A stretch of 64,000 nt of DNA from a virus. The notes below the pieces were generated by a model, which saw nothing but the letters and a program-made list of their open reading frames with translations, did not search any database and was not told where the DNA came from. Location: the IMG/VR virus record IMGVR_UViG_3300045988_126619, positions 95,469 to 159,468 of that record. One strand, written 5' to 3'. Positions 6,023 to 30,420 of the stretch are shown one piece after another; position 1 is the first letter of the stretch; each line of letters opens with the position of its first letter. The position numbers were made by a program, and so were the translations under genes.

Positions 6023-6023
6023 A

Positions 6024-7457
6024 ATGATAGATAAAGAATTAAATAAAAATATGGAAGTATTAAATATGTTGAGAAAAAGGATTATTATTTTGCCAGAAGT
6101 AAGGCTTATATTAGATAAACTTCACATAAATAATCATAAGGCTTATATTGTGGGAGGTTATGTTAGAGATTCATTGTTAAAGAATCGTATGCCACATGAT
6201 TGTGATATATGCACGTCTGCTACACCACAAGAAATTATGGATATATTTAAAAATTATAAAATAATTCCTACAGGTTTACAACATGGGACAGTAACTATTT
6301 GTATGAAATGGGGCGATTATGAAGTAACTACATTTAGAAAAGATGGGGAATATTTAGATGGTAGACACCCACAAACAATTGATTTTGTTAATGATTTAAA
6401 AGAAGATTTGAGCAGAAGGGATTTTACGATTAATGCGTTAGCTTATAATGAAGAAGAAGGATTAATTGATTATTTTGGAGGAAAGGAAGACCTTGAGAAT
6501 AAAATCATAAGATGTGTAGGAGATGCTGAAAAAAGATTTAAAGAAGATGGATTGAGAATATTAAGAGCATACAGATTCTCTGCACAATTAGGATTTACTA
6601 TAGAATATAATACAAGTAGTATATTAGCATATAAAGGTGTAAAAACAAATATAGATAACGTATCAAGAGAAAGAATAAGAGAAGAATTAAACAAAATTAT
6701 ATTATCTGATAATTCAAGAGAAGTATTGCTTAATATGGTTGATGATGGAATATGTAAAAGTATATTTGGGGATTTTACATTTGAAGATATGATGTTTTTT
6801 AATCAGAATAATCCTTATCACAATAGAACATTACTCAATCATACACTAACTGCCATGACTATTGCTCCACCAATTTTAGAAGTTAGATTGGCATTATTAT
6901 TTCATGATATAGGTAAATTACAAACACAAGCAACTGATGATAAAGGCATTTCTCACTATTATAATCATTCAAAAGTATCAGCAGAATTAGCTTTAAAGTA
7001 TTTAAAAGGATTAAAATATGATAATAAAACAATAGATATGGTTGTTACATTGATTGCAAACCATGATTTTACATTTGATAATTATGATTATATAATTAAG
7101 AAACAATTGAAGAAGCTTCTTAATAAACATGGGGAAGAAATTGTTAAGAATTTAATAATAATTAGAAAATGTGATATATTAGCACAATCAGAAAAGTATT
7201 ATTATGACCGATTAGAAAAAATTTATAAAGTTGAACGTTTACTAAATGATGTTTTAGAAGACCAAGAATGTTTTCAAATTAAAGATTTGGCTATAAACGG
7301 AAATGATTTAATTACAATAGGTTATGAGCAAGGTGTAGAACTTGGGAAAACTTTAAAATATATTGTAGACCTTGTTATAGAAGAACATTTGAATAATGAC
7401 AAAGAAGAATTATTAGAATATGCAAAATTTTTATTAAAAACACTTGACACAAAATAA
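6024..7457 (+). CDS. cca: CCA-adding enzyme (tRNA nucleotidyltransferase) with HD domain
   Basis: Contains the class II nucleotidyltransferase head motifs GGYVRDSLL, DCDI and RRDFTINAL, plus the HD motif LLFHDIGK. I prefer start ATG 6024 (GAAGGTG SD) over the track's GTG 6015. Confidence 0.8.
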   Translation: MIDKELNKNMEVLNMLRKRIIILPEVRLILDKLHINNHKAYIVGGYVRDSLLKNRMPHDCDICTSATPQEIMDIFKNYKIIPTGLQHGTVTICMKWGDYEVTTFRKDGEYLDGRHPQTIDFVNDLKEDLSRRDFTINALAYNEEEGLIDYFGGKEDLENKIIRCVGDAEKRFKEDGLRILRAYRFSAQLGFTIEYNTSSILAYKGVKTNIDNVSRERIREELNKIILSDNSREVLLNMVDDGICKSIFGDFTFEDMMFFNQNNPYHNRTLLNHTLTAMTIAPPILEVRLALLFHDIGKLQTQATDDKGISHYYNHSKVSAELALKYLKGLKYDNKTIDMVVTLIANHDFTFDNYDYIIKKQLKKLLNKHGEEIVKNLIIIRKCDILAQSEKYYYDRLEKIYKVERLLNDVLEDQECFQIKDLAINGNDLITIGYEQGVELGKTLKYIVDLVIEEHLNNDKEELLEYAKFLLKTLDTK

Positions 7458-15886: not shown

Positions 15887-18070
15887 ATGAGAACATTAGT
15901 TTTACTTAGAGGAAGTGCAGGATGTGGCAAATCAACATTTATTAAGGAGCATAAGTTAGAGGACTATACGTTGTCCTCTGACAGTTTTAGATTATTATAT
16001 AGTTCACCTATATTAATGAATGATGGAACACAATCAATTAGTGGAAAACATGAGAAAAAGACATGGGAAACATTATTTAATATCCTAGAATATAGAATGG
16101 AACAAGGGTTATTTACAGTAATAGATGCTACTAATAGTAAGGTTTCTGAAATTAACAAATATAAAAAACTTGCTGAATTTTATAGATATAATATTATTGT
16201 AGTAGATTTTACAGATTTGCCAAGAGAAGAATGTAAGATTAGAAATGCAAATAGAGAACCTAGTTATAAAATAGTTCCAAATGTTGTAATAGATAAATTC
16301 TATGATAGATTTGATAAAAAGGAAAAGTTAAGTGGAGTAACAGTTATTAAACCACATGAATTTGAACAAGCTATAAGGATTACACCTATTAATGTATCTA
16401 ACTATAATGATATTCAAATCATAGGAGATATTCATGGTTGTTATGATGCACTAATGACAATGTTAGAAGGTGGACAATTAAAAGAAGATAGATTATATAT
16501 ATTCACAGGAGATTTTTGTGATAGAGGTATCCAAAATGCAGAAGTGTTAGAATATTTATTCACTATTATGAACAATGATAATGTAATTTTATTAGAAGGA
16601 AACCATGAAAGAGCCTTATGGAGATATGCAAATGATTTATATAGTCAACGAAGACAATTTGAAAAATATACAAAAGAAGAATTAATTAATAAAAATGTTT
16701 CTAAATCAAAAATTAGACATTTATATAGAAGATTAAGGCAAATGGCTTTATTAAAGTTTGATGAAAAGACATTATTTATTTGTCATGGTGGTATTACTAA
16801 TTTATCACAAGATTTACATTTGATTTCAGCAGAACAATTAATTTATGGTGTAGGTAATTATGAAGAAGTTGAAATTATTGATAATATATTTGAATTAAAC
16901 ACAAGTTCTACAACTTATCAGATACATGGACATAGAAATGTTAATAGTAAACCTATTAATATAACACCAAGATGTTTCTGTTTAGAAGATAGAGTAGAAT
17001 TTGGTGGGAATTTAAGAAGTGTAATATTTACACACTCTATAATTAAAACTGTATCAGTAAAGAATGATACATATAAAGATTCAGAATACACAGAGGATAA
17101 AGATATTGTTATAGAGCCAAACATATTAGATAGATTAAGAAGTAGTGAATTAATTAGAGAAGTTAAGTTTGGTAATATTTCATCATTCAATTTTACAAGA
17201 AAAGCTTTTAATAATAAAGAATGGAATAATGAAACAATCAAAGCGAGAGGTTTATATGTAAATACTAATACAAAAGATATAGTTATAAGAAGTTATGATA
17301 AATTCTTTAATGTTAATGAAAGAGAAGAAACACAATTACAGAACCTTTGTAAATCACTTTCTTATCCTGCTACAGCGTATGTTAAGTACAATGGATATCT
17401 TGGTCTAGTTGGTTATGATAACGAATCTGACAAGCTGTTAGTGGCTTCTAAATCACGATTGGATGGAGATTATGCAGACTGGATAAGAGAGATAATAAAT
17501 ACATGGGAAGATGATAAAATTCAATTCATGCAAGATTATGTTAAAAAGAACAAATGTACGCTAGTATTTGAAGTTATTGTTCCAGAACATGATACTCATA
17601 TGATTAAGTATGATAAGTCTGAATTAGTGCTTTTATCCATTGTCAGAAATAATATTGAATTTGAACAGCTACCATATGAAGAAGTAATCGAACTTGGACA
17701 CCGTTTAAATTTAAATTTTAAAGAGAAAGCAATTGTTTTAAATAATAAGGAAGAGTTTTTGTCATGGTATAGAGAAGTTACACAAGAAGACTATATGTAT
17801 AATGGTGAAGATATTGAAGGCTTTGTAATAGAGGATTCTAAAGGATTTATGACAAAAATTAAGTGTAGTTATTATACATTTTGGAAACATATGCGAGCAT
17901 TAGTGGGAAGATATAAAAAACAAGGATATTATATGGATACTTCCAATTTAAATGATAGAGCATTATTATTCTTAGAATTTTTAAAGACATTACCAAAAGA
18001 ACAATTGGAATATGATATCATTACATTAAGAGATATGTTTTACAATTATGTTATTAATAAATTTTTTTAA
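15887..18070 (+). CDS. trifunctional RNA-repair enzyme (polynucleotide kinase / metallophosphatase / RNA-ligase-type adenylyltransferase), bacterial Pnkp-like
   Basis: 727 aa. The kinase has the P-loop GSAGCGKST. The phosphoesterase has GDIHGC, GDFCDRG and GNHE. The nucleotidyltransferase has motifs I KYNGYLG, III LVFEVI, IV IEGFVIED and V MTKIK. Confidence 0.75.
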   Translation: MRTLVLLRGSAGCGKSTFIKEHKLEDYTLSSDSFRLLYSSPILMNDGTQSISGKHEKKTWETLFNILEYRMEQGLFTVIDATNSKVSEINKYKKLAEFYRYNIIVVDFTDLPREECKIRNANREPSYKIVPNVVIDKFYDRFDKKEKLSGVTVIKPHEFEQAIRITPINVSNYNDIQIIGDIHGCYDALMTMLEGGQLKEDRLYIFTGDFCDRGIQNAEVLEYLFTIMNNDNVILLEGNHERALWRYANDLYSQRRQFEKYTKEELINKNVSKSKIRHLYRRLRQMALLKFDEKTLFICHGGITNLSQDLHLISAEQLIYGVGNYEEVEIIDNIFELNTSSTTYQIHGHRNVNSKPINITPRCFCLEDRVEFGGNLRSVIFTHSIIKTVSVKNDTYKDSEYTEDKDIVIEPNILDRLRSSELIREVKFGNISSFNFTRKAFNNKEWNNETIKARGLYVNTNTKDIVIRSYDKFFNVNEREETQLQNLCKSLSYPATAYVKYNGYLGLVGYDNESDKLLVASKSRLDGDYADWIREIINTWEDDKIQFMQDYVKKNKCTLVFEVIVPEHDTHMIKYDKSELVLLSIVRNNIEFEQLPYEEVIELGHRLNLNFKEKAIVLNNKEEFLSWYREVTQEDYMYNGEDIEGFVIEDSKGFMTKIKCSYYTFWKHMRALVGRYKKQGYYMDTSNLNDRALLFLEFLKTLPKEQLEYDIITLRDMFYNYVINKFF

Positions 18071-18078
18071 AAAAGGTA

Positions 18079-18107
18079 TTGACATAAAATAAATGATAGT
18101 ATATAAT
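18079..18107 (+). promoter_or_regulatory. sigma-A-type promoter with the conserved element as spacer
   Basis: TTGACA at 18079-18084, spacer TAAAATAAATGATAGTA, TATAAT at 18102-18107. Confidence 0.7.
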
Positions 18108-18131
18108 AGAATCATAAGGAAGGTGTTAAAT

Positions 18132-18311
18132 ATGATGAAAAAATTTAAAAAAGATAAGATTGTTTTAGAAGGTGGTTACGTTCCCACAAGATTTACAAAT
18201 GTAGAAGGAAGTCTTCAAGAAATTAATAGGGGTTGTGGTATTCACAAATCTAAAAAAGCTTATAAAAGAAATCTAAAACACAGAAAGAAGGAATTAGAAT
18301 ATGATTTTTAA
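18132..18311 (+). CDS. small basic protein
   Basis: 59 aa from ATG 18132, after AAGGAAGGTG. It is the first gene after the promoter at 18079-18107. Confidence 0.4.
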   Translation: MMKKFKKDKIVLEGGYVPTRFTNVEGSLQEINRGCGIHKSKKAYKRNLKHRKKELEYDF

Positions 18312-18963
18312 GAAAATTTGGCAAACAATTAAAAAGGTCTTATCATTCTTATCTCATAGAGTAGATAAATCAATTCCAGTAGAAGACCAATTAGAAATTA
18401 TGAAAAAAGACCTACTACAAAAGAAACATGATATTGAAAATAATTCTAATCTTATGCAAATAAGAGGGATGAAACAACAATATGAGCAGGAACTCAAAGA
18501 CCTAAGAAGAGAATTTGCAAATGCAAACTTTGATAAAACTATTAAATTTTTAAAAGATAATAATGATACAGAACACGCATTAGAAACACTAAAGAAAAAG
18601 AAAAGACTAGAATCAAAAATAGAAGCAACTAAGGATAGACTTAAACAAGCAAAAGAAGCTGATAGAAATATCGTTAAGAAATTAAATCTATTAGATGCTA
18701 AGATTCAAGCTACAACAGATAAGATTGAAGAATTAAAAGAAAGAAATCAATATGCAGAACAAACAAATGCTATTGCTGATTTAATGAACCAATTAAACGA
18801 TATTGATACTGGTGTAGATGTTGATGGAATTTCAGATAGAATTAAATCTATTGAAAGAGAATCTAATGGAAGACTTGATGAATTTAATAGAAGAAGTTCT
18901 GGAGAAATTGCTAGACAAGAATCTTTAGATAATGCTTTACTAGAAGAATTAAATAATTATTAA
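18301..18963 (+). CDS. PspA/IM30 (phage-shock protein A)-like coiled-coil protein
   Basis: 220 aa. An N-terminal amphipathic helix (IFKKIWQTIKKVLSFL) is followed by PVEDQLEIMKKDLLQKKHDIE and long heptad-rich helices. Size and pattern match the PspA/Vipp1 family. Confidence 0.5.
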   Translation: MIFKKIWQTIKKVLSFLSHRVDKSIPVEDQLEIMKKDLLQKKHDIENNSNLMQIRGMKQQYEQELKDLRREFANANFDKTIKFLKDNNDTEHALETLKKKKRLESKIEATKDRLKQAKEADRNIVKKLNLLDAKIQATTDKIEELKERNQYAEQTNAIADLMNQLNDIDTGVDVDGISDRIKSIERESNGRLDEFNRRSSGEIARQESLDNALLEELNNY

Positions 18964-18988
18964 TTAAATAATATACGAAAAAATAATT

Positions 18989-19012
18989 GAGGTGTAAATC
19001 ATTATACACCTC
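18989..19012 (+). terminator. stem-loop without U-tract, immediately 5' of the conserved element
   Basis: An 8-bp stem GAGGTGTA/TACACCTC after the PspA-like gene. Confidence 0.35.
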
Positions 19013-19015
19013 ACA

Positions 19016-19030
19016 CATAAAATAAATGAT
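19016..19030 (+). promoter_or_regulatory. conserved element, stand-alone copy (no -35)
   Basis: ACACATAAAATAAATGAT after the hairpin at 18989-19012, followed by AAAAGGAGA. Confidence 0.5.
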
Positions 19031-19049
19031 AAAAAGGAGAATGAAAAGT

Positions 19050-19466
19050 ATGAGATATGAAGTAGATATGAAATTAAGTGGAAAAATAGATGGAAGTGAA
19101 ATAGAACAATTATTAACAACAACTGTTGTTAGAACATTAGTTGGAGGTATGCTATTATTAAAAGATGAAGAATATATTGAAGAAAGAGGTCTAACAAAAA
19201 AAGATTTAGCTGAAATAAAAGACAAAATGGAAACTGCTAAAAAAGATTACTTAGAATTATTAGGAAATTTAGATGGAGTTACACCAGTAGGTGATAAACA
19301 AGCTAGATTTATTAGTGTAAATATGACTAATCCAACAGATATTAATTCGGTGGCACTTGTAGTTTTAAAAGGAATTACTGTATCAAATGAAGAAGAATTA
19401 TTAAAGTTTGCAGGAGCAAAGTTAATAGAAGAAGATGATATAATTTATGCTGAAACAGTATTATAG
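19050..19466 (+). CDS. acidic protein of unknown family, paralog of 21570-21992
   Basis: 138 aa from ATG 19050, after AAAAGGAGA. MRYEVDMKLSGKIDG...LLKDEEYIEE...EEELLKFAGAKLIEEDD aligns along its whole length with 21570-21992. Confidence 0.5.
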   Translation: MRYEVDMKLSGKIDGSEIEQLLTTTVVRTLVGGMLLLKDEEYIEERGLTKKDLAEIKDKMETAKKDYLELLGNLDGVTPVGDKQARFISVNMTNPTDINSVALVVLKGITVSNEEELLKFAGAKLIEEDDIIYAETVL

Positions 19467-19478
19467 GGGGTAGTTTAT

Positions 19479-20033
19479 ATGGCAGTAACATTACAAAAAA
19501 GACAGGGAATATCATTATCAAAAGGTTTCTCTAAATTAAGATTTACAGTAAATTGGGAGTATAAAGATGCAGATGTAGACATTGAAGCAATTGTTGTAGA
19601 TGATGGTATTGCTTTAATTGATGAAGACCTAGTTTTTTATGGCAATTTAAGACATCCAAGTAAATCAGTTAGACATTTAGGAGATATAAGAAATGGTGGT
19701 GGTTCTGATGGTGGAACTGAAACTATATCAATAGATTTAACTAAACTACCTAATGATAGAAATGAAATTATTCTAACAGCTTCAATAGATGGAGCAGAAT
19801 CAAACGGAAATAATTTTGGTAATATAGGTAAAGTTAGATGTGAATTAATTGATGATACAAATAGTAAATTATTAGCAACATATGATGTTGATGTTGATTT
19901 AGATATGGAAATTGCAGGAGTGTTATGTAGAATATATAGAAAAGAAGATAATCAATTTGGATATGAAACAGTTGGGCAAGCTTATCCAAGCTTAGAAAGT
20001 ATGGTAACACATTACGGAATAGTGGTGGCATAA
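19479..20033 (+). CDS. terD: TerD-family protein
   Basis: 184 aa. It has the N-terminal MAVTLQKRQGISLSKG and the Ca-binding-type loop GDIRNGGGSDGGTETISIDL typical of TerD/TerE/TerZ. Confidence 0.75.
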   Translation: MAVTLQKRQGISLSKGFSKLRFTVNWEYKDADVDIEAIVVDDGIALIDEDLVFYGNLRHPSKSVRHLGDIRNGGGSDGGTETISIDLTKLPNDRNEIILTASIDGAESNGNNFGNIGKVRCELIDDTNSKLLATYDVDVDLDMEIAGVLCRIYRKEDNQFGYETVGQAYPSLESMVTHYGIVVA

Positions 20034-20043
20034 AATAAACGAC
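20029..20043 (+). promoter_or_regulatory. conserved element, stand-alone copy (variant)
   Basis: CATAAAATAAACGAC. It contains the TerD stop (20031-20033), and its 3' end enters the hairpin at 20042-20072. Confidence 0.45.
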
Positions 20044-20072
20044 AGCAGGACTTATTATATAGGTTCTGCTGT
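20042..20072 (+). terminator. stem-loop after terD
   Basis: ACAGCAGGA pairs with TTCTGCTGT (one G-U pair), followed by ATTTAAAAA. Confidence 0.4.
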
Positions 20073-20096
20073 ATTTAAAAACGAGGAGAGAGAACT

Positions 20097-20432
20097 ATGA
20101 AGAATAAAGAAATTATTAAATTAGATGAAAATAGATGGGTATTATGGTCATATACAGAAGGAGTTATTTTGACTTGTGATTCAGAAGGAGATTTATTAGA
20201 GTATTTAGAAGATTGTAAATGTGTAGATTTAGATGTAAAGGAATTTTTAGTTAATAGTAAAATATATGGAGCAAAATTAGAATGTATTGAAGAACTTATG
20301 ACATATTCTGATAATGAAGATGATTGGGATATATTCTATAATTGGAAGAAAGAAGTGTTATGTTCTGTAGAAGATTTTGATGATTATTGCAGAGCAATAG
20401 ACAATAAATTAAATGAATTATTAGAGAGGTAA
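20097..20432 (+). CDS. hypothetical acidic protein
   Basis: 111 aa with a GAGGAGAG SD. No motif recognised. Confidence 0.45.
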   Translation: MKNKEIIKLDENRWVLWSYTEGVILTCDSEGDLLEYLEDCKCVDLDVKEFLVNSKIYGAKLECIEELMTYSDNEDDWDIFYNWKKEVLCSVEDFDDYCRAIDNKLNELLER

Positions 20433-20436
20433 TTAA

Positions 20437-20856
20437 ATGAGTTATGAAGTAACTGTAAGAGAAAGCACAATAAAAATTAAAAAAGAACTTGTTAAACAAG
20501 CTTTGGAAGATATTTGCAATCACCAAAAACAACATGGAACATTTCAATATTGCTATTTTTTTAATATTGAAGATATAAATTTTAATAATTATGGAATAGA
20601 TGATAATACATGGAGTGCAATAGATATATTTCATGATTGTCTAGGGTTGGTCTGTAAATATGAAGATGATTGTTTATTTATAAAAAGATTAAGATATGAC
20701 GGTTTAGCAGAAGAATTAGATATATTTAATGTCATAGCACCATATTGTTATGATGGGGGATATATGGAGTTTTGTGGAGAAGACGGAGAACTATTTAGAT
20801 ACACAATAAAAGATGAATCATGTATAGAACAAAGTCCTAAAATAGTTTGGGAATAA
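20437..20856 (+). CDS. hypothetical protein
   Basis: 139 aa with an AGAGAGG SD. No motif recognised. Confidence 0.45.
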   Translation: MSYEVTVRESTIKIKKELVKQALEDICNHQKQHGTFQYCYFFNIEDINFNNYGIDDNTWSAIDIFHDCLGLVCKYEDDCLFIKRLRYDGLAEELDIFNVIAPYCYDGGYMEFCGEDGELFRYTIKDESCIEQSPKIVWE

Positions 20857-20880
20857 ATAAAAAAATATTTTAAAAAAGTA

Positions 20881-20909
20881 TTGACATAAAATAAATGATA
20901 TGATATACT
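20881..20909 (+). promoter_or_regulatory. sigma-A-type promoter with the conserved element as spacer
   Basis: TTGACA at 20881-20886, spacer TAAAATAAATGATATGA, TATACT at 20904-20909. Confidence 0.65.
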
Positions 20910-20962
20910 AATATTGTAGTCAAGGGAACTACAAAATAATAAATAGAAAGAGGGATAAATAA

Positions 20963-21517
20963 ATGGCAATTCAATTATCAAAGAACAAAGGAATTAATTT
21001 AAAGAAAGGCTTGGACAAAGTAAGATTTGTTGTAAGATGGGATTCTAAAGAAGATGTAGATATCCAAGCATTAGTTTTAAAAGACGGACAATCAAGTGCT
21101 GATGAAGATTTAGTATTCTACAATCAACCAACACATCCTACAGGAGCAGTAAAACATTCTGGAGATGTAAGAGATGGTTCAAAAGTAGATGGTGATGATG
21201 AATATATTGATATTACATTATCTGCTTTACATCCACAAAAGAATCAAGTATTATTAACTGCTTCAATAGATAATGCAGTAGAAAAAGGTGTTGATTTTGG
21301 AAGTATTGGAAAAGTTACTTGTGAACTTATAAATGCTAGTAACAATGAAGTTTTAGCAACATATCAAGTTGATAAAGACTTAGACATGGAAGCTTGTGGA
21401 GTTCTTTGTGAATTAAAGAAGAGTGATAATGGAAGTTGGGATTATAAAGCTGTAGGTCAAGCTTATATGGACTTAGGAGATATGTTAACATCATATGGAT
21501 TCAATATAGCAGATTAA
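20963..21517 (+). CDS. terD: TerD-family protein
   Basis: 184 aa. It has MAIQLSKNKGINLKKG and the loop GDVRDGSKVDGDDEYIDITL, and is collinear with 19479-20033. Confidence 0.75.
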   Translation: MAIQLSKNKGINLKKGLDKVRFVVRWDSKEDVDIQALVLKDGQSSADEDLVFYNQPTHPTGAVKHSGDVRDGSKVDGDDEYIDITLSALHPQKNQVLLTASIDNAVEKGVDFGSIGKVTCELINASNNEVLATYQVDKDLDMEACGVLCELKKSDNGSWDYKAVGQAYMDLGDMLTSYGFNIAD

Positions 21518-21528
21518 TATTAATAAAA

Positions 21529-21543
21529 CATAAAATAAATGAT
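21529..21543 (+). promoter_or_regulatory. conserved element, stand-alone copy (no -35)
   Basis: CATAAAATAAATGAT, 12 nt upstream of AAAAGGAGAG. Confidence 0.5.
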
Positions 21544-21569
21544 AATAAATAAAAAGGAGAGATTTGAAT

Positions 21570-21992
21570 ATGAAATATAAAGTAGATGAAAGATTAAGTG
21601 GAACAGTAAGATTAGAAATTGGAGAAAGAATGTTTGTAGAAGATGTTTGTAAAACAATTATTGGTGGAAAAGCATTATTGGAAGATGAAGATTATATTAA
21701 AGAGCATAATGTATCAGAAGAAGATTTAAATGATGTAGCACAACAAATAGCAGAAGCTGAAAAAGCTTATTTAGCATTATTAAATGATGTAGCAGGAACA
21801 ACTGATGAAAATGAAGAAGATGCTAAAGAAGTACAAAGTATGATTAGAATGTTAGCTTTTGATTCAGAAGGAGAATTAGGACTTTTAGTATTAGAAGGAA
21901 CTAGAGCAACTAATGATGAAGAATTATTAAAATTTGTAAGTGCAAAAATAATGATAGATAATGAAGATATGTATGTTGAAATTGATGAATAA
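21570..21992 (+). CDS. acidic protein of unknown family, paralog of 19050-19466
   Basis: 140 aa from ATG 21570. It reads MKYKVDERLSGTVRL...LLEDEDYIKE...DEELLKFVSAKIMIDNED. Confidence 0.5.
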   Translation: MKYKVDERLSGTVRLEIGERMFVEDVCKTIIGGKALLEDEDYIKEHNVSEEDLNDVAQQIAEAEKAYLALLNDVAGTTDENEEDAKEVQSMIRMLAFDSEGELGLLVLEGTRATNDEELLKFVSAKIMIDNEDMYVEIDE

Positions 21993-22008
21993 AAGGAGAG
22001 ATTGAATA

Positions 22009-22665
22009 ATGGCAGTATCATTACAAAAAAGACAAGGAATATCATTAAAGAAAGATAACGGAACAAAATTAACAAAAATCACATTAGGTTTATCTTGGTG
22101 TGAAAAGAAGAAAGGAAGGACTGTAACAGAAACAGTTCCAAAGAAGGGATTCTTTAATAGATTAATTGGAGCAGTTGAAGAAGTTACAAGAACAATTCCA
22201 GTAAATACTAAAGATGTTGATTTAGATACAGCAGTTCTTGCATATAAAAGAAATGATTATAAAGGTATATGTTACTTTGGTGATAAAGATATGTATATAA
22301 GAAATAATCATATTATACACCACTATGGGGATGCACTTAGTAGCAATACAAAGTTTACAGAAAAAGATAACGAACAAATAGATATATACTTAGATAAGAT
22401 TGACACAAACATAATGGATACATTCTATCTTGTAATGAATATATTCACAAGTGGTATTGACTTTGGAGATATTGAAAATGCTAGAGTTACAGTTTATGAT
22501 GAAAAAGGTAATAGCATAGCAACATATAATCCAGTAGATGATTACAGAGGTAATAATGGAATTATAGTTGGTAAAGTTTATCACAATGGTTCTGAATGGA
22601 AATTTGAAGCGATTGGTGATGGAAAGAATGTATCAAGATTAATCGATTTTAAAAGATATTTATAA
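22009..22665 (+). CDS. divergent TerD-like protein with insertions
   Basis: 218 aa. The N-terminus MAVSLQKRQGISLKKDNG is near-identical to TerD at 19479. The Ca-loop region is degenerate (YGDALSSNTKFTEKDNEQIDIYL). Confidence 0.6.
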   Translation: MAVSLQKRQGISLKKDNGTKLTKITLGLSWCEKKKGRTVTETVPKKGFFNRLIGAVEEVTRTIPVNTKDVDLDTAVLAYKRNDYKGICYFGDKDMYIRNNHIIHHYGDALSSNTKFTEKDNEQIDIYLDKIDTNIMDTFYLVMNIFTSGIDFGDIENARVTVYDEKGNSIATYNPVDDYRGNNGIIVGKVYHNGSEWKFEAIGDGKNVSRLIDFKRYL

Positions 22666-22671
22666 TAATAA

Positions 22672-22686
22672 CATAAAATAAATGAT
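22672..22686 (+). promoter_or_regulatory. conserved element, stand-alone copy (no -35)
   Basis: CATAAAATAAATGAT. Its 3' ATGATAAGGGAT pairs with AATCCTTTATCAT (hairpin 22681-22711) ahead of the ATPase gene. Confidence 0.5.
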
Positions 22687-22746
22687 AAGGGATAATAACA
22701 ATCCTTTATCATTTAAATAAATTAATTATAAGGAGAGATAAATAAT

Positions 22747-25365
22747 ATGAAAATTAATAAAGAAGGTTTAAGTAACCAAGAAGTAGAACAAAGTAGAGAA
22801 AAATATGGAGCGAATAGACTTCCCGAAAAAGTATATCCTACAATATGGGAAAGAATAACAAATGTTTTTAAAGAAGATGGAATAATGACAATGTTATTTG
22901 TTTTAGCAATATTGGAAGGAATTGAAGCACTAGTATGTAGAGAGATACCTTGGGAATGTATAGGAATCATGACTACAGTTAGTGTAGTAACATTTTTTAC
23001 TATTAATTCAGATTTGAAACAAGAAAAATCATTTAAAGATTTGAAAGCATCTATACAAGAGCCTACAGTTACTGTAATAAGAGAAGGAAGAAAACAGATA
23101 ATTAAACAATCAGACTTAGTAGTTGGTGATATTTGTTTACTTAATAATGGAGAAAAAGCTTATGCTGATGGATTGATAATTGAACAAACCGATTTTAAAA
23201 TTTCAAATGCAGAACTTAATGGTGAATCAGATGAAGTAGAAGTTGATACATTTAATTATGTGGAAAATTCAGAAGTTGAATTTACAGATGATGTTTCAAA
23301 ACAAGAAGGATTTATTAATAGTGGAGCATTAATTGTTAATGGTAAAGCTACTATGGGAGTTGTAAGAGTTGGAGAAAACACAGAAAGTGGTAAAGCTTTA
23401 GTAAATGTTACTGAAATGAAAACGCCTTTGCTTGAAAAACTTGATACTTTAACAGAACAAATCACAAGATATGGTGCAGTTGGTGCAACATTAATGTTCG
23501 CTATCAATTTTGGAGTGATTGTTTTATTAAAAGGTGGATTATCATACTTCACAAGTACAGCAGTTCTTAGTATAGGATTAGATATAGTTGCTTGTTTAAT
23601 GGTTGCATTATCAATATTTAGTGCATCTGCCCCAGAAGGTCTTCCATTTGTTATTAACTTAGTTCTTTCAGCAAATGTTAACAAGATGAAAAAACACAAC
23701 GTTTTATTAAAAAATGTTAAAAAAGGTGAAACAAGTGGTTCTTTATCAATCTTATTTAGTGACAAAACAGGAACAATGACAAAGAATATAATGTCAATAG
23801 TTGAATTTACAGATGGAACAGGAAAAACACTTAATCGTGGCGAAATTGAAAATTCAAAATACAAAGAATTAATAGATAGAAGTATTGTAATGAGTTCAGA
23901 TTCATATTATGACGAGAATGGAGATTTAATTGGTGGTAATGGTACTGATAGAGCATTTAGTAAGTTTGTTGGAGCAGATTTATTTAAACAATATTCAAAT
24001 AGTACAGTAATTAAATCACAACCATTCAATTCTAAGAATAAGTATAACGCAGTTCAATTAGATGGATACACTATATATAAAGGTGCAGGAGAAATATTAG
24101 TAAACAATTCTAAAAACTTAATAAATACTGATTGTTGGGTAAGAGGAATTGAAGAAGAAGATAGAGAAAATCTACAATCTACAATGGATAGAATGATGAA
24201 TAAGGCTGAAAGAGTTTTAGCTATCGCAATTTCTAAACAACCATTAGTTGACAATGAACTTCCAAGCGACTTAACATTATTAGCGGTATTTGGTATTAGA
24301 GATGAAATAAGAGAAAGTACACCAACAGCTATTGAAAATTTAAATAATGCAGGTGTTCAAGTTGTAATGGTAACAGGAGATAATATTAAAACTGCTGATG
24401 CTATTGCAAAAGAAATCGGATTATTAAAAGATGGAGATTTAAGTTTTACAAATGATATATTAATGGATATGACCGATGAAGAAATCGCTTCAATATTACC
24501 TAAATTAAAAGTAGTTGGTAGAGCGAAACCAGATACTAAACGTAGATTAAATCATATCGCTCAAAATAACGGTTATGTTACAGGAATGTGCGGAGATGGA
24601 GTTAATGATGCTCCTGCCTTAATGCAAGCTGATATTGGATTTGCTATGGGTTCTGGAACAGATGTTGCAAAAGATGCAGGTGACGTAGTTATCTTAGATA
24701 ATAACTTAGCATCAATTGAATATGGTGTTAAGAGTGGTAGACAAATATTTAAGAATATTCAAAAGTTCTTAAAGTATCAATTAGCAATTAATGTTGGTAT
24801 TGTTATAACTCCTATTTTAGCTTCATTATGTGGTGTAACTAAATCATTAGCAGTAACAAGTATTCTATGGATTAATGCAATAATGGATACATTAGCATCA
24901 CTTGCATTTAGTGGTGAACCTTGTGAAGATAGTGTGATGAAAGAAAAACCTATCTCAAGAACAGCTAACATAATTAATAAAGACATGATGATTCAAATAG
25001 CAACAACTGGTTTATACTTTATAGGAACTGGATTATTTATGCTAACAAGTGATGTAATGGGTAATTTATTTGGTGAAAAACAAACAACAGCTTATTTCTC
25101 ATTATTTGTAATGATAGCGATATTCAATGGTTTTAATGTAAGAACAGCATCAATTAATTGTTTAAAAGACATTAAAAAGAATCCAAGATTTATTAAGATT
25201 ATGGCTTTAATTACAGTATTACAAGTGTTATTAGTAAGTTTTGGTGGTAAAATATTTGATGTTATGCCAATGAACCTTATGGAATGGTTAATTGTAACAG
25301 GTATTGCAGTATTAATTATCCCAATAGATTTAATTAGAAAAATGATTATGAATAAAACAAAATAA
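22747..25365 (+). CDS. P-type ATPase, type II (Ca2+-ATPase-like) cation pump
   Basis: 872 aa. It has the N-terminal LSNQEVEQSREKYGANRLPEK, the actuator motif NGES, the TM4 motif PEGLP, the phosphorylation site SDKTGTMT, the nucleotide/hinge motifs VMVTGDN and GDGVNDAPAL, and about 10 hydrophobic segments. Confidence 0.85.
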   Translation: MKINKEGLSNQEVEQSREKYGANRLPEKVYPTIWERITNVFKEDGIMTMLFVLAILEGIEALVCREIPWECIGIMTTVSVVTFFTINSDLKQEKSFKDLKASIQEPTVTVIREGRKQIIKQSDLVVGDICLLNNGEKAYADGLIIEQTDFKISNAELNGESDEVEVDTFNYVENSEVEFTDDVSKQEGFINSGALIVNGKATMGVVRVGENTESGKALVNVTEMKTPLLEKLDTLTEQITRYGAVGATLMFAINFGVIVLLKGGLSYFTSTAVLSIGLDIVACLMVALSIFSASAPEGLPFVINLVLSANVNKMKKHNVLLKNVKKGETSGSLSILFSDKTGTMTKNIMSIVEFTDGTGKTLNRGEIENSKYKELIDRSIVMSSDSYYDENGDLIGGNGTDRAFSKFVGADLFKQYSNSTVIKSQPFNSKNKYNAVQLDGYTIYKGAGEILVNNSKNLINTDCWVRGIEEEDRENLQSTMDRMMNKAERVLAIAISKQPLVDNELPSDLTLLAVFGIRDEIRESTPTAIENLNNAGVQVVMVTGDNIKTADAIAKEIGLLKDGDLSFTNDILMDMTDEEIASILPKLKVVGRAKPDTKRRLNHIAQNNGYVTGMCGDGVNDAPALMQADIGFAMGSGTDVAKDAGDVVILDNNLASIEYGVKSGRQIFKNIQKFLKYQLAINVGIVITPILASLCGVTKSLAVTSILWINAIMDTLASLAFSGEPCEDSVMKEKPISRTANIINKDMMIQIATTGLYFIGTGLFMLTSDVMGNLFGEKQTTAYFSLFVMIAIFNGFNVRTASINCLKDIKKNPRFIKIMALITVLQVLLVSFGGKIFDVMPMNLMEWLIVTGIAVLIIPIDLIRKMIMNKTK

Positions 25366-25372
25366 TAAATTG

Positions 25373-25406
25373 TAAGAGTGGTAGAAATATCACTCTTATT
25401 TTTTTT
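25373..25406 (+). terminator. intrinsic terminator after the P-type ATPase gene
   Basis: An 8-bp stem TAAGAGTG/CACTCTTA, a 10-nt loop, then T8. Confidence 0.75.
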
Positions 25407-25414
25407 AAAAACTA

Positions 25415-25443
25415 TTGACATAAAATAAATTATAATATATAAT
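25415..25443 (+). promoter_or_regulatory. sigma-A-type promoter with the conserved element as spacer
   Basis: TTGACA at 25415-25420, spacer TAAAATAAATTATAATA, TATAAT at 25438-25443. Confidence 0.65.
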
Positions 25444-26398: not shown

Positions 26399-26944
26399 AT
26401 GAAAAAAATATTAGTAGTAATTGATATGCAAAATGATTTTATAACAGGAAGTTTAGGAACAAAGGAAGCACAAGAAATTGTTCCAAAAGTAATTGATAAG
26501 ATTAAAGAATATGATAAATATGAAAACAGTCTTATATATGCAACACAAGATACTCATTATATAGGTTATTTAAAAACTCTTGAAGGATTAAAATTACCAA
26601 TAGAACATTGTATAAAAGATACAGAAGGATGGGAAATACAAAAAGATATATTAAAAGAATTAAAAGAAAGAAAAGCTTGTATATCAGAGAAAATAACATT
26701 TGGAGATATAAATTTAGCAGAGAATTTTTCTGGATTAAATTGTGTTAATCATGATGTTGAAATAGAATTAATTGGGTTATGCACAGATATATGTGTTATA
26801 TCTAACGCATTAACAATTAAAGCTTACGTTCCAGAAGTAAAAATTATAGTAGATGCAAGTTGTTGTGCAGGTGTAACACCACAAAGTCATAAAAATGCAC
26901 TAGAAGCTATGAAGATGTGTCAAGTAGAAATTATTAATGAATAG
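26399..26944 (+). CDS. pncA: nicotinamidase (isochorismatase-family cysteine hydrolase)
   Basis: 181 aa. It has VVIDMQNDF (Asp), TQDTHY and PIEHCIKDTEGWEI (metal/HC motif), and LIGLCTDICV (nucleophile Cys). Confidence 0.7.
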   Translation: MKKILVVIDMQNDFITGSLGTKEAQEIVPKVIDKIKEYDKYENSLIYATQDTHYIGYLKTLEGLKLPIEHCIKDTEGWEIQKDILKELKERKACISEKITFGDINLAENFSGLNCVNHDVEIELIGLCTDICVISNALTIKAYVPEVKIIVDASCCAGVTPQSHKNALEAMKMCQVEIINE

Positions 26945-26958
26945 GAGATGTATAGATT

Positions 26959-27783
26959 ATGGTAAAAGTAAATGGAGAAGAACACAATTATTATTTATTC
27001 CCTAATAATGAATTAAAGGTATCACCTATTAGATATGGTAATTATGTTGAAATTAAAGATGGCGATGATATAGAAGTAGAATTAATATATGAAAATTCAA
27101 TAGACCTTGTTCACCTTATATTTGTAAAGAAATTTTTAGATGAAGCCTATCCACATAGTTGTGTAGATTTAGTTATGAAATATATTCCATACTCAAGAAT
27201 GGACAGGGAAACACCTTTTCAAATGTTTACTTGTAAATATTTATGTCAATTAATAAATGATTTATGTTTTAGTTCTGTAACAGTATTAGACCCTCATTCA
27301 AATGTATGTGTGGGAGCATTAGAACGTGTTAAGCAAATAGATTTATCATATTATGTTAAACAAGTATTAGACTACGAAAGAGTGAAAGAAGGAACTTATA
27401 TAGATGCTATATTCCTTCCAGACGTAGGTGCATATAAAAAGTATACAGAAGTATTGGATAATGTAAAGTTACCTAAATTTTGGGGGAATAAACATCGTGA
27501 CTTAAACAATGGAGCAATAACTGATTATGATATAATTGGAGATATTGATGTTAATGGTAAAAATATACTTATAGTTGATGATATATGCGTTAAGGGATTT
27601 ACCACATTATTTGCCTCAAAGAAATTAAAAGAACTAGGAGCAAATAAAGTCATTTTCTATTGTTCTCATTGTGAAGATGCTATTCATAGTGGACAATTAT
27701 TAAAAACAGATTATGTAGATAGAATATATACAACTGATAGCATGAAATTTGATGAACATAATAAAATAATTAAATTATATTAG
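26959..27783 (+). CDS. ribose-phosphate pyrophosphokinase homologue (Prs-like; candidate ADPR-PP synthetase)
   Basis: 274 aa. KYIPYSRMDRE, VLDPHSN and the PRPP-loop ILIVDDICVKGFT match the Prs family. The N-terminal region is shorter and more divergent than housekeeping Prs. Confidence 0.65.
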   Translation: MVKVNGEEHNYYLFPNNELKVSPIRYGNYVEIKDGDDIEVELIYENSIDLVHLIFVKKFLDEAYPHSCVDLVMKYIPYSRMDRETPFQMFTCKYLCQLINDLCFSSVTVLDPHSNVCVGALERVKQIDLSYYVKQVLDYERVKEGTYIDAIFLPDVGAYKKYTEVLDNVKLPKFWGNKHRDLNNGAITDYDIIGDIDVNGKNILIVDDICVKGFTTLFASKKLKELGANKVIFYCSHCEDAIHSGQLLKTDYVDRIYTTDSMKFDEHNKIIKLY

Positions 27784-27807
27784 GAGAAAGTATTATATCA
27801 AAATATG

Positions 27808-27836
27808 TTGACATAAAATAAATGATAGTATATAAT
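27808..27836 (+). promoter_or_regulatory. sigma-A-type promoter with the conserved element as spacer
   Basis: TTGACA at 27808-27813, spacer TAAAATAAATGATAGTA, TATAAT at 27831-27836. Confidence 0.7.
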
Positions 27837-27902
27837 AAATAATGTAGAGAGCAGTTAGTAAATCTGCTCCTACAATATAAATAAATGAAAGAGAGTGATT
27901 AT

Positions 27903-29375
27903 ATGAAAACAAACCCAATGTTATTGATTGATTTTTATAAGGCTTGTCATAGTGATATGTTACCAAAAGGAATAACTAAATCAGTCAGTTATTTTACACC
28001 TAGAATGAAAAGAGTTGAAAGATGGGACAATGTAGTTATGTTCGGTCTACAAGGATTTATTAAAACTTATTTAATTGATTATTTTAACGAAAATTTCTTT
28101 AATCAAACAACAGAAAAGGCAGTATTTGAATATGAAAGAGTTCTTAAATATTCTTTAGGGGAAGATTCTTTTAGTAGTGAAAAAGTAAGAAAACTTCATA
28201 AATTAGGTTATTTACCAATTGAAATTTTAGCAATTAAAGAAGGAACAAAAGTACCTATAAAGATACCTATGTTTGCAATAACAAATACTCATGATGATTT
28301 TGCATGGCTACCACAAGCCTTAGAATCACTTATATCTGCTGAAATGTGGCATCCTATGATATCAGCTACAGTTGGAGCAACTTATAGAGATATAGTAAAT
28401 AAATATTATGATATTTCATGTGATGATGATATTCCAAGAGCAAAAGCATTAGGAGATTTTAGCTTTAGAGGACAAGAATGTTTACAATCAGCAATTAAGA
28501 GTTCAGCAGGTTGGTCACTATCATTCTTAAATTCAGCTACAGTTCCTGCTATACCATATTTAGAAGATAATTATAATTGTAATTGCATAACAGAACCAGT
28601 TTTATTTGGGGCAGTTTCTACAGAACATTCTGTGATGTGTTCTAATTATTCTGTAGATGGGGATGAAGAAACATTAATCAGAAGATTATTAACTGAATTA
28701 TATCCAAATGCTTCATTTAGTGCTGTTTTAGATTCTTATGATTATTGGAGAATTGTTAAAGAAGTTCTTCCTAAATTAAAAGAAGAAATACTTAACCACA
28801 ATGGATGTTTCTTAATAAGGGGAGATAGTGGGGATTGTGTAGAAGTTGTTACACAAACTGTATTTGAGTTATGGAAGACATTTGGAGGAACTGTTAATAG
28901 TAAAGGCTATAAAGTATTAGACCCACACGTAAAAGCTATTTATGGTGATTCTATAACAGTTCAAAGATGTGAAGAAATATATAAGATACTTATAGAAAAT
29001 GGATTTGCTTGTTCAAATGTAGCACTTGGTGTTGGCTCATTCTCAATGCAAGCAATTGAAGAAGATGGAATACTTAAACCATTTACTAGAGATACTTATG
29101 GAATGGCTATTAAAGCTACTTACATGGAAATAAATGGTGAATCATATCCAATATTTAAGAATCCAAAGGATGGAGGATTTAAGAAATCGCAAAAAGGCTG
29201 TTGTAGTGTATTCTTTGATGAAGATGGGGAAATGGTTTATGCAGATGGATTAACTTGGGAAGAAGCTTGTGGTGATGAAGAAAACTTATTACAACCAGTA
29301 TTTAAAGATGGTCAGTTAGTTAGGGAACAATCATTACAAGAAATAAGAAATATATTACATGAAGGAGGATTTTAA
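27903..29375 (+). CDS. nicotinamide phosphoribosyltransferase-family protein (NadV/Namat-like)
   Basis: 490 aa from ATG 27903. NPMLLIDFYKACH, VMFGLQ, LPIEILAIKEGTKVP, AWLPQALESL..MWHP and GDFSFRG follow the Nampt/NadV pattern. It has its own promoter at 27808-27836. Confidence 0.7.
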   Translation: MKTNPMLLIDFYKACHSDMLPKGITKSVSYFTPRMKRVERWDNVVMFGLQGFIKTYLIDYFNENFFNQTTEKAVFEYERVLKYSLGEDSFSSEKVRKLHKLGYLPIEILAIKEGTKVPIKIPMFAITNTHDDFAWLPQALESLISAEMWHPMISATVGATYRDIVNKYYDISCDDDIPRAKALGDFSFRGQECLQSAIKSSAGWSLSFLNSATVPAIPYLEDNYNCNCITEPVLFGAVSTEHSVMCSNYSVDGDEETLIRRLLTELYPNASFSAVLDSYDYWRIVKEVLPKLKEEILNHNGCFLIRGDSGDCVEVVTQTVFELWKTFGGTVNSKGYKVLDPHVKAIYGDSITVQRCEEIYKILIENGFACSNVALGVGSFSMQAIEEDGILKPFTRDTYGMAIKATYMEINGESYPIFKNPKDGGFKKSQKGCCSVFFDEDGEMVYADGLTWEEACGDEENLLQPVFKDGQLVREQSLQEIRNILHEGGF

Positions 29376-29378
29376 AAT

Positions 29379-29681
29379 ATGAAATTAGGTCTTATTTATG
29401 ATTATTTTGGAACTGTTAAGTTTGGTTCTATTGAAGTAGAAGAAAAACCAAAGACATATAAAACAATAGGTGGGGAATCAGTACCTAGAGTATATAGAAG
29501 TGTTATAAATAAAGATATGATTAATAAAGTGTATGATGATGTTGTTCTTATATATGATTGTTCTAAAGAAGAAGCTATTAAAATATGGAATGAACATTTT
29601 GATAGAAAAATTAATACTAAAAAAGAATATTTTGAGAAAGAAGTAGAACGTTTAGAAGGTTTAATTATAAAGGAGGAATAA
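29379..29681 (+). CDS. hypothetical protein inside the NAD module
   Basis: 100 aa with a GAAGGAGGA SD. It is tightly packed between the Nampt-like and NadE genes. Confidence 0.45.
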   Translation: MKLGLIYDYFGTVKFGSIEVEEKPKTYKTIGGESVPRVYRSVINKDMINKVYDDVVLIYDCSKEEAIKIWNEHFDRKINTKKEYFEKEVERLEGLIIKEE

Positions 29682-29682
29682 T

Positions 29683-30420
29683 ATGTATAAATTTGATGCA
29701 AAGGAAACAGCAAGACAATTAATAGAATGGATAAAAGAATATTTTGAAAATAATGGGGATAAAAATACTAAAGCTATCATTGGTATTTCTGGTGGAAAAG
29801 ATAGTTCTATAGTAGCAGGATTATGTGTTGAAGCACTAGGTAAGGATAGAGTAATTGGTGTAAAGATGCCACAAGGAGAACAAGAAGATATAGAATATGC
29901 AGAGGATATTATTGATTTCTTAGGCATAAAATCATATGAAATAAATATTGAGGATTCAGTTTTTGGAGTATATAGAGAATTAGATTTTGAGAAAATACCT
30001 AGAAACTCAATAGTAAATTCCAATACACCTGCAAGAATAAGAATGACTGTATTATATGCAGTTAGTGGAGCATTGGGTGGTAGAGTAGCAAATACATGTA
30101 ATCTATCAGAAGATTATGTCGGTTATGCTACAAAGTTTGGTGATGGAGCAGGAGATTTTTCACCATTATCTAATTTAACTGTAACAGAGGTTAAAGCTAT
30201 TGGAAGAGAAATAGGTATTCCAGATTATTTAATAGATAAGACACCTATAGATGGACTTTGTGGACTATCAGATGAAGATAATTTAGGTTTTTCTTATGAT
30301 ACTTTAGATAAGTATATTAGAACTGGTATATGTGAAGATGAAGAAACTAAGAGAAGAATAGATGCTATGCACAAAAATAATTTGCATAAGTTATTACCTA
30401 TGCCATCATTTAAATTATAA
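29683..30420 (+). CDS. nadE: NH3-dependent NAD+ synthetase
   Basis: 245 aa. It has the PP-loop IIGISGGKDSS and later ANTCNLSEDYVGYATKFGDGAGDFSPL, both typical of NadE. Confidence 0.8.
   Translation: MYKFDAKETARQLIEWIKEYFENNGDKNTKAIIGISGGKDSSIVAGLCVEALGKDRVIGVKMPQGEQEDIEYAEDIIDFLGIKSYEINIEDSVFGVYRELDFEKIPRNSIVNSNTPARIRMTVLYAVSGALGGRVANTCNLSEDYVGYATKFGDGAGDFSPLSNLTVTEVKAIGREIGIPDYLIDKTPIDGLCGLSDEDNLGFSYDTLDKYIRTGICEDEETKRRIDAMHKNNLHKLLPMPSFKL

Follow-up and report, generated by a model that had tools for sequence, protein, structure and literature searches.

The DNA considered here is a 64-kb window of the virus record IMGVR_UViG_3300045988_126619, and its subject is a block of ten genes on the plus strand (18079 to 25409) that encode a PspA/Vipp1-like protein, three TerD paralogs, a P-type ATPase and several small proteins. 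On a moderate balance of probability, this block is a reduced, phage-resident derivative of the Clostridial ter operon, with an early role in stabilising the membrane and Ca2+ of the host cell. The first-pass annotation of the window had regarded the combination as non-standard and its composition as undescribed. This view did not hold, since TerD–TerD–ATPase was found to be the conserved core of the ter operon of Clostridial cells.

The phage core and the Clostridial ter operon

In Lachnospiraceae, Clostridium and Blautia, the operon has the order YceG_bac–TelA–TerD×3–PMCA-type ATPase, with or without a HAD gene at its end. The cellular ATPases nearest to that of the window were 38–40% identical to it in BLASTP, and all three of the neighbourhoods inspected were ter-linked. 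An AT-rich Clostridium-like contig (L010/L011) carries YceG–TelA–TerD×3–ATPase; Blautia hydrogenotrophica (L012) carries PRTase_2/TRSP, StiP/PELOTA and C-C lyase genes, YceG, TelA, TerD×3, the ATPase and a HAD enzyme; and Clostridium sp. CAG:221 (L008/L009) has a YceG–TerD fusion followed by the ATPase. A survey with the ATPase-proximal TerD paralog as the query, limited to one genome per species, gave at least 586 relatives, whose best 80 loci were studied. A P-type ATPase homolog was located directly downstream of TerD in 64 of the 74 surveyed loci with enough sequence, typically after a gap of 23–280 nucleotides (nt). TelA and YceG were upstream in 64 of 65 surveyed cellular loci, and a homolog of the phage PspA-like protein was seen in none of the best 80 cellular ter loci.

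The likeness between the phage block and the Clostridial operon extends to the paralogs. In both, two or three TerD genes are directly 5′ of an ATPase of the same subfamily, and the paralog order is the same, with the TerD that has a GFF insertion nearest the pump. In the window, this is the divergent TerD-long (22009..22665, plus strand, 218 amino acids (aa)), whose GFF-containing insertion is common to the ATPase-proximal cellular TerD proteins and which is their positional ortholog. In an all-against-all comparison, the best cellular matches of TerD-long were L001_Tlong (92 bits; record MT840059.1, described below) and L012_T3 (82 bits), while other paralogs gave 38–62 bits, and the short phage TerDs best matched the distal cellular paralogs. 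The order of the genes and the identity of the paralogs have thus been preserved together. The ATPases of the phages and of the ter-linked cellular loci also have two signatures in common, NGE(S/A) for TGES and IRD(D/E)(V/I)R for DPPR. On the other hand, the phage block differs from the Clostridial operon by the absence of TelA, YceG, HAD and PRTase/StiP, by the PspA-like gene at its head with small acidic genes interleaved behind it, and by a degraded Ca motif in two of three TerDs. Profile searches with Pfam and NCBIfam found no TelA or YceG domain in any block protein, and the block is thus regarded as a derivative of the operon and not as a full member.

The block genes had been treated as one system in the first-pass annotation, and their co-conservation was indeed seen in related phages at the loci L007, L004–L006, L093 and L094, which have a guanine-plus-cytosine (GC) content of 24–29%. 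The ATPase of L007 is 70% identical to that of the window, and this locus shares the window neighbourhood from the Pnkp gene to the NAMPT gene, with the order PspA-like, acidic, two unknown genes, TerD, two acidic, TerD-long and ATPase. L004–L006 (ATPase 48% identical) have only a PspA-like homolog (44% identical), TerD, TerD-long and the ATPase, with gyrB/methylase genes on one side and RNase H on the other. The same four genes are present in L093 (ATPase 49%) with IS605/TnpB nearby, and in L094 (ATPase 48%) with IS605/TnpB, RNA ligase, AAA_24 and DnaE genes nearby. Across the phage lineages, the PspA-like orthologs are 40–45% identical. The core PspA-like–TerD–TerD-long–ATPase was thus found in at least four diverged low-GC phage lineages and in differing genomic contexts. 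This four-gene core is thus the conserved unit. What the window clade adds to it, judging from these comparisons, are the basic protein of 59 aa, the acidic family and the two proteins of 111 and 139 aa. Near the core of L004–L006 there is also a gene of the Acb2/Tad1-hairpin family, about 4 kb downstream (L004:16630-16989 in a 146-kb relative, with equivalents in L005 and L006). Acb2/Tad1 is a sponge family directed against CBASS and Thoeris, and the core of these loci thus lies near a counter-defence gene.

The phage ATPases formed a single clade in a midpoint-rooted neighbour-joining tree without an outgroup. Their identity was 48–49% between phage clades and 37–46% between phage and cellular proteins, and the cellular ATPases were at least 50% identical among themselves. 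On the basis of the single clade and these identity levels, we provisionally suggest a single ancient capture, after which the gene stayed in phages for a long time and passed among them. All catalytic and Ca-site residues were kept across the phage ATPases, and this retention, together with the recurrence of the four-gene core beside different neighbours, argues for selection in phages.

It had also been stated in the first-pass annotation that no phage system of this kind was described. This claim of novelty was overstated, because phage-borne Ter/Ca2+ modules are known already and parts of the block have been published, for jumbo-phage Ter in 2021 (PMC7824862) and for a gut-phage set in 2026 (PMC12880540). 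Iyer, Anantharaman, Krishnan, Burroughs and Aravind reported jumbo-phage Ter operons, phage-borne clusters that contain TerD, as the block does, and that were read as membrane or conflict modules and proposed for superinfection competition and pseudolysogeny (PMC7824862). Those clusters differ from the block in carrying TerC, TerF, TelA and PRTase/HAD enzymes beside TerD, and the terms "P-type" and "PspA" occur zero times in the text of that paper. The Jug (jumbo gut) phages of Bacteroides/Phocaeicola have the same three kinds of proteins as the window, namely three terD, a pspA-like gene that adjoins one terD, and a Ca-translocating P-type ATPase, which was acquired from the host phylum (Sci Adv 2026, PMC12880540). 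In these unrelated phages, transcription of the Ca-ATPases is high. The Jug phages transcribe the terD regions and the ATPase from different operons, and a 77–91-aa protein shares the ATPase transcript, whereas the window genes are contiguous, mirror the Clostridial operon and belong to a probable Clostridium phage of ~160 kb. The same study also noted Ca-translocating ATPases in four smaller phages of 159–197 kb, with Bacteroidaceae- or Bacillota-like sequences (PMC12880540). The window phage is plausibly one of these four; the longest contig with its exact ATPase measures 159.5 kb.

Outside phages, TerD and PspA are also co-regulated stress genes in a Firmicute, as the sigma-W envelope-stress regulon of B. 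subtilis includes both pspA (pspA-ydjGHI) and yceCDEFGH, the TerD operon (PMC3498285). The Bacillus genes form two separate loci, whereas the phage unites both functions under its own promoters. We take YceC, YceD and YceE to be three TerD paralogs, YceF to be a TerC-family cation (Mn) exporter and YceH to be a TelA homolog. On this view, yceCDEFGH has three TerD genes with a cation exporter behind them, the latter being TerC and not a P-type ATPase. A P-type Ca pump encoded by a virus has been described for Chlorella virus, whose Ca2+-transporting ATPase is transcribed during infection (Bonza et al. 2010, cited in PMC12880540). The carrier of that pump is a giant virus of eukaryotes, in which it stands without TerD or PspA partners. 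Our literature searches found no description of a contiguous PspA-like–TerD–TerD–ATPase unit, of its derivation from the Clostridial YceG–TelA–TerD×3–ATPase with preserved paralog order, of PspA replacing TelA/YceG, or of the acidic family.

Proteins and expression signals of the block

The three TerD calls of the first-pass annotation were supported over the full length of the proteins. The Pfam TerD model (PF02342, cut-off 25.3 bits) gave 123.2 bits for the first paralog (TerD1, 19479..20033, plus strand, 184 aa), 127.2 bits for the second (TerD2, 20963..21517, plus strand, 184 aa) and 95.5 bits for TerD-long, and PHROG 5698 also matched the window TerD. TerD2 is the ortholog of the TerD of L007 (270 bits), and its best cellular matches were the distal paralogs T1/T2, while TerD1 has no ortholog in the L007 locus. 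TerD domains are Ca2+-binding, and the Klebsiella TerD structure gives the binding motifs as GDN(R/L)TGxGxGDDE and DxDxS. In our alignment, TerD2 keeps the first motif as GD..DGDDE, TerD1 has a partly degraded version (GDIRNGGGSDGGTE) that ends in DGGTE, and TerD-long has KDNEQ at this place; DxD is kept in all three.

The protein that the first-pass annotation had called PspA/IM30-like (18301..18963, plus strand, 220 aa) was accepted by us as a divergent, predicted member of the PspA/Vipp1 family (IM30, ESCRT-III superfamily), based on an ortholog score, profile and fold searches and its N-terminal helix. The ortholog of L094 (40% identical) reached 35.4 bits with the Pfam PspA_IM30 model (PF04012), for which the cut-off is 33.9 bits. 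A profile of the six-sequence family had solely Vipp1 as its top matches in the PDB (E 3.6e-4). The AlphaFold2 (AF2) model (pLDDT 79) has six helices, and its best 12 Foldseek matches in the PDB were all Vipp1/PspA, with E-values of 2e-3 to 5e-2 that are weak, as usual with coiled coils, a TM-score of ~0.5 and ~20% identity. The predicted fold, with an N-terminal amphipathic helix, a long helical hairpin and further helices, fits PspA/Vipp1. The amphipathic helix comprises residues 2–19, and its hydrophobic moment (muH 0.65) was attained by 0.15% of shuffled sequences. The idea of a shortened TelA was rejected (hhalign probability 0.14%). PspA/Vipp1 proteins bind and stabilise damaged membranes through the N-terminal amphipathic helix and are part of the ESCRT-III superfamily (titles of PDB 6zvr and 7o3w). 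A tblastn search of the phage collection with the PspA-like protein gave no match, and an alignment scan of IMG/VR gave no confirmed relatives.

The P-type ATPase (22747..25365, plus strand) is an uninterrupted protein of 872 aa of type IIB (PMCA-like). Pfam Cation_ATPase_N, E1-E2_ATPase, Hydrolase and Cation_ATPase_C all scored over their cut-offs, the hallmarks PEGLP, DKTGT and GDGVNDAPAL listed in the first-pass annotation are all present, and the core motifs DKTGT, TGDN and GDGVNDAP are intact. The best NCBIfam model was TIGR01517 (PMCA-type Ca ATPase), followed by the PMR1-type (360.6 bits) and SERCA-type (339.1 bits) models. The near-identical copy in Clostridium butyricum is labelled "PMCA-type" by NCBI, and the closest PDB structures were Arabidopsis ACA8 and Listeria LMCA1. 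The predicted Ca site consists of PEGLP in M4 and INAIMDT in M6 (Asn and Asp), with INVGIV in M5 lacking the Glu of site I, and such a site matches the one-site pumps of the PMCA type. The roles of these ion-site residues are established for SERCA and PMCA, and PMCA-type pumps export Ca2+.

The ATPase gene of many close relatives is split within GDG|VNDAP by a 1192-nt insert (L007:11855-13046), which encodes a 240-aa HNH-like open reading frame (ORF); the relatives with a split gene include the 618–624-aa ATPase fragments P0003–P0011 and P0161/P0164. Both exons are intact, and their identity to the gene of the window is 70–73%. The insert follows an exon whose last nucleotide is U and itself closes with G, which is the pattern of group I introns; a search of the L007 insert against Rfam matched no group I intron model. 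In IMG/VR, a scan with the ATPase found no confirmed relatives, and tblastn matches in the phage collection were mostly bacterial contaminants or unverified contigs. One of these, L001 (MT840059.1), proved to be a GC-rich (59%) bacterial ATPase–TerD–TerD fragment. Many matches in this collection, under names such as "Bacteriophage sp." and "Listeria phage LM 4-11-1", are unannotated, unverified and bacterial-looking contigs, and the presence of a gene in the collection is therefore weak evidence of phage carriage.

Two copies of one acidic protein had been noted, and this relationship was borne out (33% identity, E 2e-25). Copy 1 (19050..19466, plus strand, 138 aa with the start corrected to 19050, isoelectric point (pI) 4.5) ends 12 nt before TerD1, copy 2 (21570..21992, plus strand, 140 aa, pI 4.2) ends 16 nt before TerD-long, and in L007 an acidic copy lies 14 nt upstream of TerD-long. 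This position of the acidic genes, 12–16 nt upstream of TerD genes, suggests that each acidic protein may be translationally coupled with its TerD partner. A search of 1.84 billion clustered proteins yielded just 7 members of the family (137–141 aa), each of them from the window phage clade. The AF2 model is confident (pLDDT 88, pTM 0.83) and predicts a small beta-sheet against a helical hairpin, a fold for which no significant match was found in the PDB (best E 1.1) or BFVD (best E 0.14).

The block begins with a basic 59-aa protein (18132..18311, plus strand, pI 9.95), whose gene overlaps the start of the PspA-like gene by 11 nt. This protein matched no family over cut-off in Pfam, PHROG and NCBIfam profile searches and is absent from L007, where only ~80 nt separate Pnkp from the PspA-like gene. 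Between TerD1 and TerD2 are an acidic 111-aa protein (20097..20432, plus strand) and an acidic, Cys-rich 139-aa protein (20437..20856, plus strand), which had no family match in the profile libraries. Their orthologs (36% and 57% identical, respectively) were seen in L007 only, and no database-wide homology search was made for them. The 139-aa protein was also considered as a divergent paralog of the acidic family, which was unsupported (hhalign probability 0.4%).

All ten plus-strand ORFs of the first-pass annotation are present in the order given there, each with a GGAG-type ribosome-binding site. Its promoter at 18079 was likewise borne out (18079..18107, plus strand) as a sigma-70-type promoter with a 12/12 match to the consensus TTGACA-17-TATAAT, situated within a phage-wide motif, TTGACATAAAATAAAT. 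Near the block end, a hairpin (25372–25399) with a 12-bp stem and the T run behind it form an intrinsic terminator (25372..25409, plus strand), and the next promoter follows at 25415. The picture of a single island from promoter to terminator stood only in part, as both end signals are real but internal promoters were also found. A strong one upstream of TerD2 (20881..20909, plus strand) has a perfect copy of the 16-nt motif, an 11/12 consensus match and an extended −10 TG, and a degenerate one upstream of the ATPase (22668..22696, plus strand) has a 9/12 match and two mismatches to the 16-nt motif. It follows from these internal promoters that the block is not one simple operon, and its predicted structure is that of two or three tandem transcription units sharing one terminator. 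The extended motif TTGACATAAAATAAAT consists of the −35 hexamer and an AT-rich spacer. Its copies in the window number 26, with 1.1 expected; 25 are on the plus strand and lie upstream of genes. The motif is also found upstream of the PspA-like gene in L007 and probably represents the early/middle promoter class of the phage. Example sites on the plus strand are 9466, 18079, 20881, 25415, 25885, 27808, 31227, 34522 and 57897.

The phage and its probable host

The window has a GC content of 24–30%, and nearly all of its genes are on the plus strand up to ~58 kb. Its gene content, which includes a fusion of Pnkp with an RNA ligase, a CCA-adding enzyme, a DnaE-type polymerase, NrdD, a DnaB-like helicase, a primase, an exonuclease, Sak4, a DNA ligase, an endolysin and a tail-like protein, shows it to be the replication/early region of a large tailed phage. 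With the polymerases of Clostridium phage c-st and Geobacillus virus E3, the DnaE-type enzyme shares 37% identity. No close isolate of the phage was found in the phage collection, and megablast with the whole block against the phage and plasmid collections gave no match. The nr database has, under the name "MAG TPA … [Caudoviricetes sp.]", exact copies of the window ATPase (DAQ97497.1) and of the PspA-like and acidic proteins (DAQ97620.1, DAQ97621.1), in records on contigs of up to 159.5 kb.

The ATPase, PspA-like and acidic proteins also have identical or near-identical copies, that of the acidic protein being exact, in an assembly of Clostridium butyricum (MDB2162415.1, PMX22_20180/20185). 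Because the proteins occur in this assembly and the GC content matches, C. butyricum is most likely the host, as far as the sequences indicate. That the phage turns up in an isolate assembly suggests that it either persists in a carrier or pseudolysogenic state or is a contaminant. The C. butyricum entries, among them those for the proteins P0143, P0160 and P0174, are of chromosomal style (PMX22_ tags, WP_ accessions; contigs of 155–162 kb), and the phage proteins in this assembly are mislabelled as bacterial in RefSeq-type records.

Directly upstream of the block, a gene on the plus strand (15887-18070) encodes a 727-aa protein in which a polynucleotide kinase (AAA_33) is fused to a metallophosphatase and a T4-type RNA ligase 1, an RNA-repair enzyme of the type used against anticodon nucleases. 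The CCA-adding enzyme is at 6015-7457, yet zero tRNA genes occur within the window. Just 3′ of the block, a cluster for salvage or reconstitution of nicotinamide adenine dinucleotide (NAD+) extends over 26399-30420 on the plus strand and is syntenic in L007. It encodes an isochorismatase/nicotinamidase-like protein (26399-26944), a Prs-like phosphoribosyltransferase (26959-27783; Pfam 24.3 bits, under the cut-off), a NAMPT-like enzyme (27885-29375) and an NAD synthetase (29683-30420), all on the plus strand, and is similar to phage NAD-reconstitution pathways that counter NAD-depleting defences. Near 58–59 kb, the GC and AT skews flip sign where the genes turn to the minus strand, and here the early/replication module gives way to a late module with divergent transcription. 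The minus-strand genes past ~58 kb include an endolysin-like gene (60659-61747) and an RCC1/tail-like gene (62291-63592).

Possible roles of the module

The block carries the signals for its expression, namely consensus promoters, ribosome-binding sites and a terminator, and it sits among replication genes. The membrane and Ca2+ reading of the first-pass annotation is reasonable, and early phage-driven stabilisation of the host membrane and Ca2+ balance is the most likely role, as judged from the sequences and by analogy. We propose that an ancestor of the large low-GC Clostridium phages took up TerD–TerD(long)–PMCA-type ATPase in one piece, and that a PspA/Vipp1-like gene came to stand at the head of the module, where cells carry TelA and YceG. 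The window lineage would later have expanded this core by a TerD duplication, an acidic protein before two of the TerDs and three small genes. Transcription would start at sigma-70-like promoters of the host type, which lie within the replication/early genes, and would presumably occur early in infection. The ATPase in the host membrane would export Ca2+ (or a related divalent cation) from the cytoplasm, the TerD proteins may bind or sense Ca2+ beneath the membrane, and the PspA-like protein would attach to the stressed membrane by its amphipathic helix and seal it. The infected cell could in this way stay energised and ion-tight over a long infection, independent of the host stress regulators, and the phage would own a constitutive version of two envelope-stress functions of the host, available early in infection. 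The gain may lie in lytic efficiency, in keeping out other phages, in resistance to pore-forming abortive infection or in the fitness of a carrier cell; the first-pass annotation had put forward action against abortive infection, superinfection exclusion and lysis timing as candidate roles.

Several points weigh against this proposal. The window PspA-like protein scores 27.8 bits in a full-length match to PF04012, and the L007 ortholog scores 26.1 bits, both under the Pfam cut-off. The ATPase scores 505.5 bits with TIGR01517 against a cut-off of 507.05 and is thus short by 1.5 bits, and its transported ion is assigned by homology only. Its A-domain motif is NGES instead of TGES (Glu kept, Thr replaced by Asn), and it has IRDEIR in place of DPPR; since both occur in every aligned ter-linked cellular homolog, they are regarded as marks of the subfamily and not as decay. 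Two of the TerDs, TerD1 and TerD-long, have a degraded Ca-binding motif, and five of the ten block genes have no assignable function. The module is without the nearly universal TelA and YceG, so that its working mode may be different from that of the cellular operon. The pump would be dispensable in the related phages if the insert in their ATPase gene stays unspliced. Moreover, the phage ATPase clade depends on the rooting of the tree described above, and the benefit to the phage and the timing of expression are inferred.

A role in superinfection exclusion or inter-phage competition, in which the altered membrane would block the DNA injection or establishment of later phages, has been proposed already for the jumbo-phage Ter genes (Iyer et al., PMC7824862). 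The host-type promoters would fit early expression, the module is kept in several phage lineages, and plasmid ter operons that give phage and colicin resistance offer an analogy. The block, however, is without the TerC, TerB, TerF, TelA and PRTase/HAD signalling enzymes of full Ter systems, and the PADLOC defence models gave only coiled-coil noise with the block proteins. To our knowledge, a phage-resistance phenotype is known only for the proteobacterial terZABCDEF. We consider exclusion rather unlikely as the role of the block.

The identical or near-identical proteins on the 155–162-kb contigs of the C. butyricum isolate assembly would agree with a cargo function, by which the ter, PspA and Ca-pump genes raise the stress tolerance of a carrier or pseudolysogenic C. 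butyricum cell. At 37% identity, the polymerase is a distant relative of the one from the plasmid-prophage Clostridium phage c-st, and Ter genes have been suggested to aid phages through pseudolysogeny (PMC7824862). Nevertheless, the block is inside the replication/early region, with the same orientation and promoter motif as its neighbours, and does not resemble a moron under separate regulation; no integrase or partition gene was seen within the 64-kb window, which is only part of the genome. A benefit to the host cell appears unlikely to us as the explanation of the block. That the ATPase moves another divalent cation such as Mn2+, taking the place of the TerC-type exporter of the Bacillus yceCDEFGH in metal supply or toxicity, is very unlikely. 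In favour of this reading, the A- and P-domain motifs of the subfamily are non-canonical, and the score falls narrowly short of the PMCA cut-off. Against it, every one of the best models and structures is a Ca pump (PMCA-type, ACA8, LMCA1), and the ATPase retains the site-II ligands (Glu in M4, Asn and Asp in M6) as well as the PMCA-like NxxMD motif.

A further reading of the four-gene core is regarded by us as a doubtful possibility. By analogy, the core could be a Ca2+-triggered membrane-repair circuit, a counterpart in a bacterial virus of the eukaryotic ESCRT-III repair of gasdermin and MLKL pores. TerD would sense the Ca2+ that leaks through injection holes or through pore-forming abortive-infection effectors and would then recruit or activate PspA, which as an ESCRT-III-like protein would close the lesion. 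The pump would reset the cytoplasmic Ca2+, and the acidic proteins might be adaptors or regulators of TerD with a new fold. If such a circuit exists, the phage would outrun the membrane-targeting suicide defences of its host.

The function of TerD and of the ter operon is still unresolved decades after their discovery. The minimal version described here, which appears to have been selected in several phage lineages, unites a TerD pair, a Ca-pump-type ATPase and an ESCRT-III-like PspA in four genes. It is a compact system in which it can be tested whether TerD couples Ca2+ to membrane repair, and its probable host C. butyricum is cultivable, unlike the hosts of the Jug phages, which are known from metagenomes only. 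The acidic family adds a small set of phage proteins with a confidently predicted fold and without a known relative. The core also bears on the purpose of the ter-linked ATPase subfamily and on the question of why large gut phages repeatedly gain Ca pumps.

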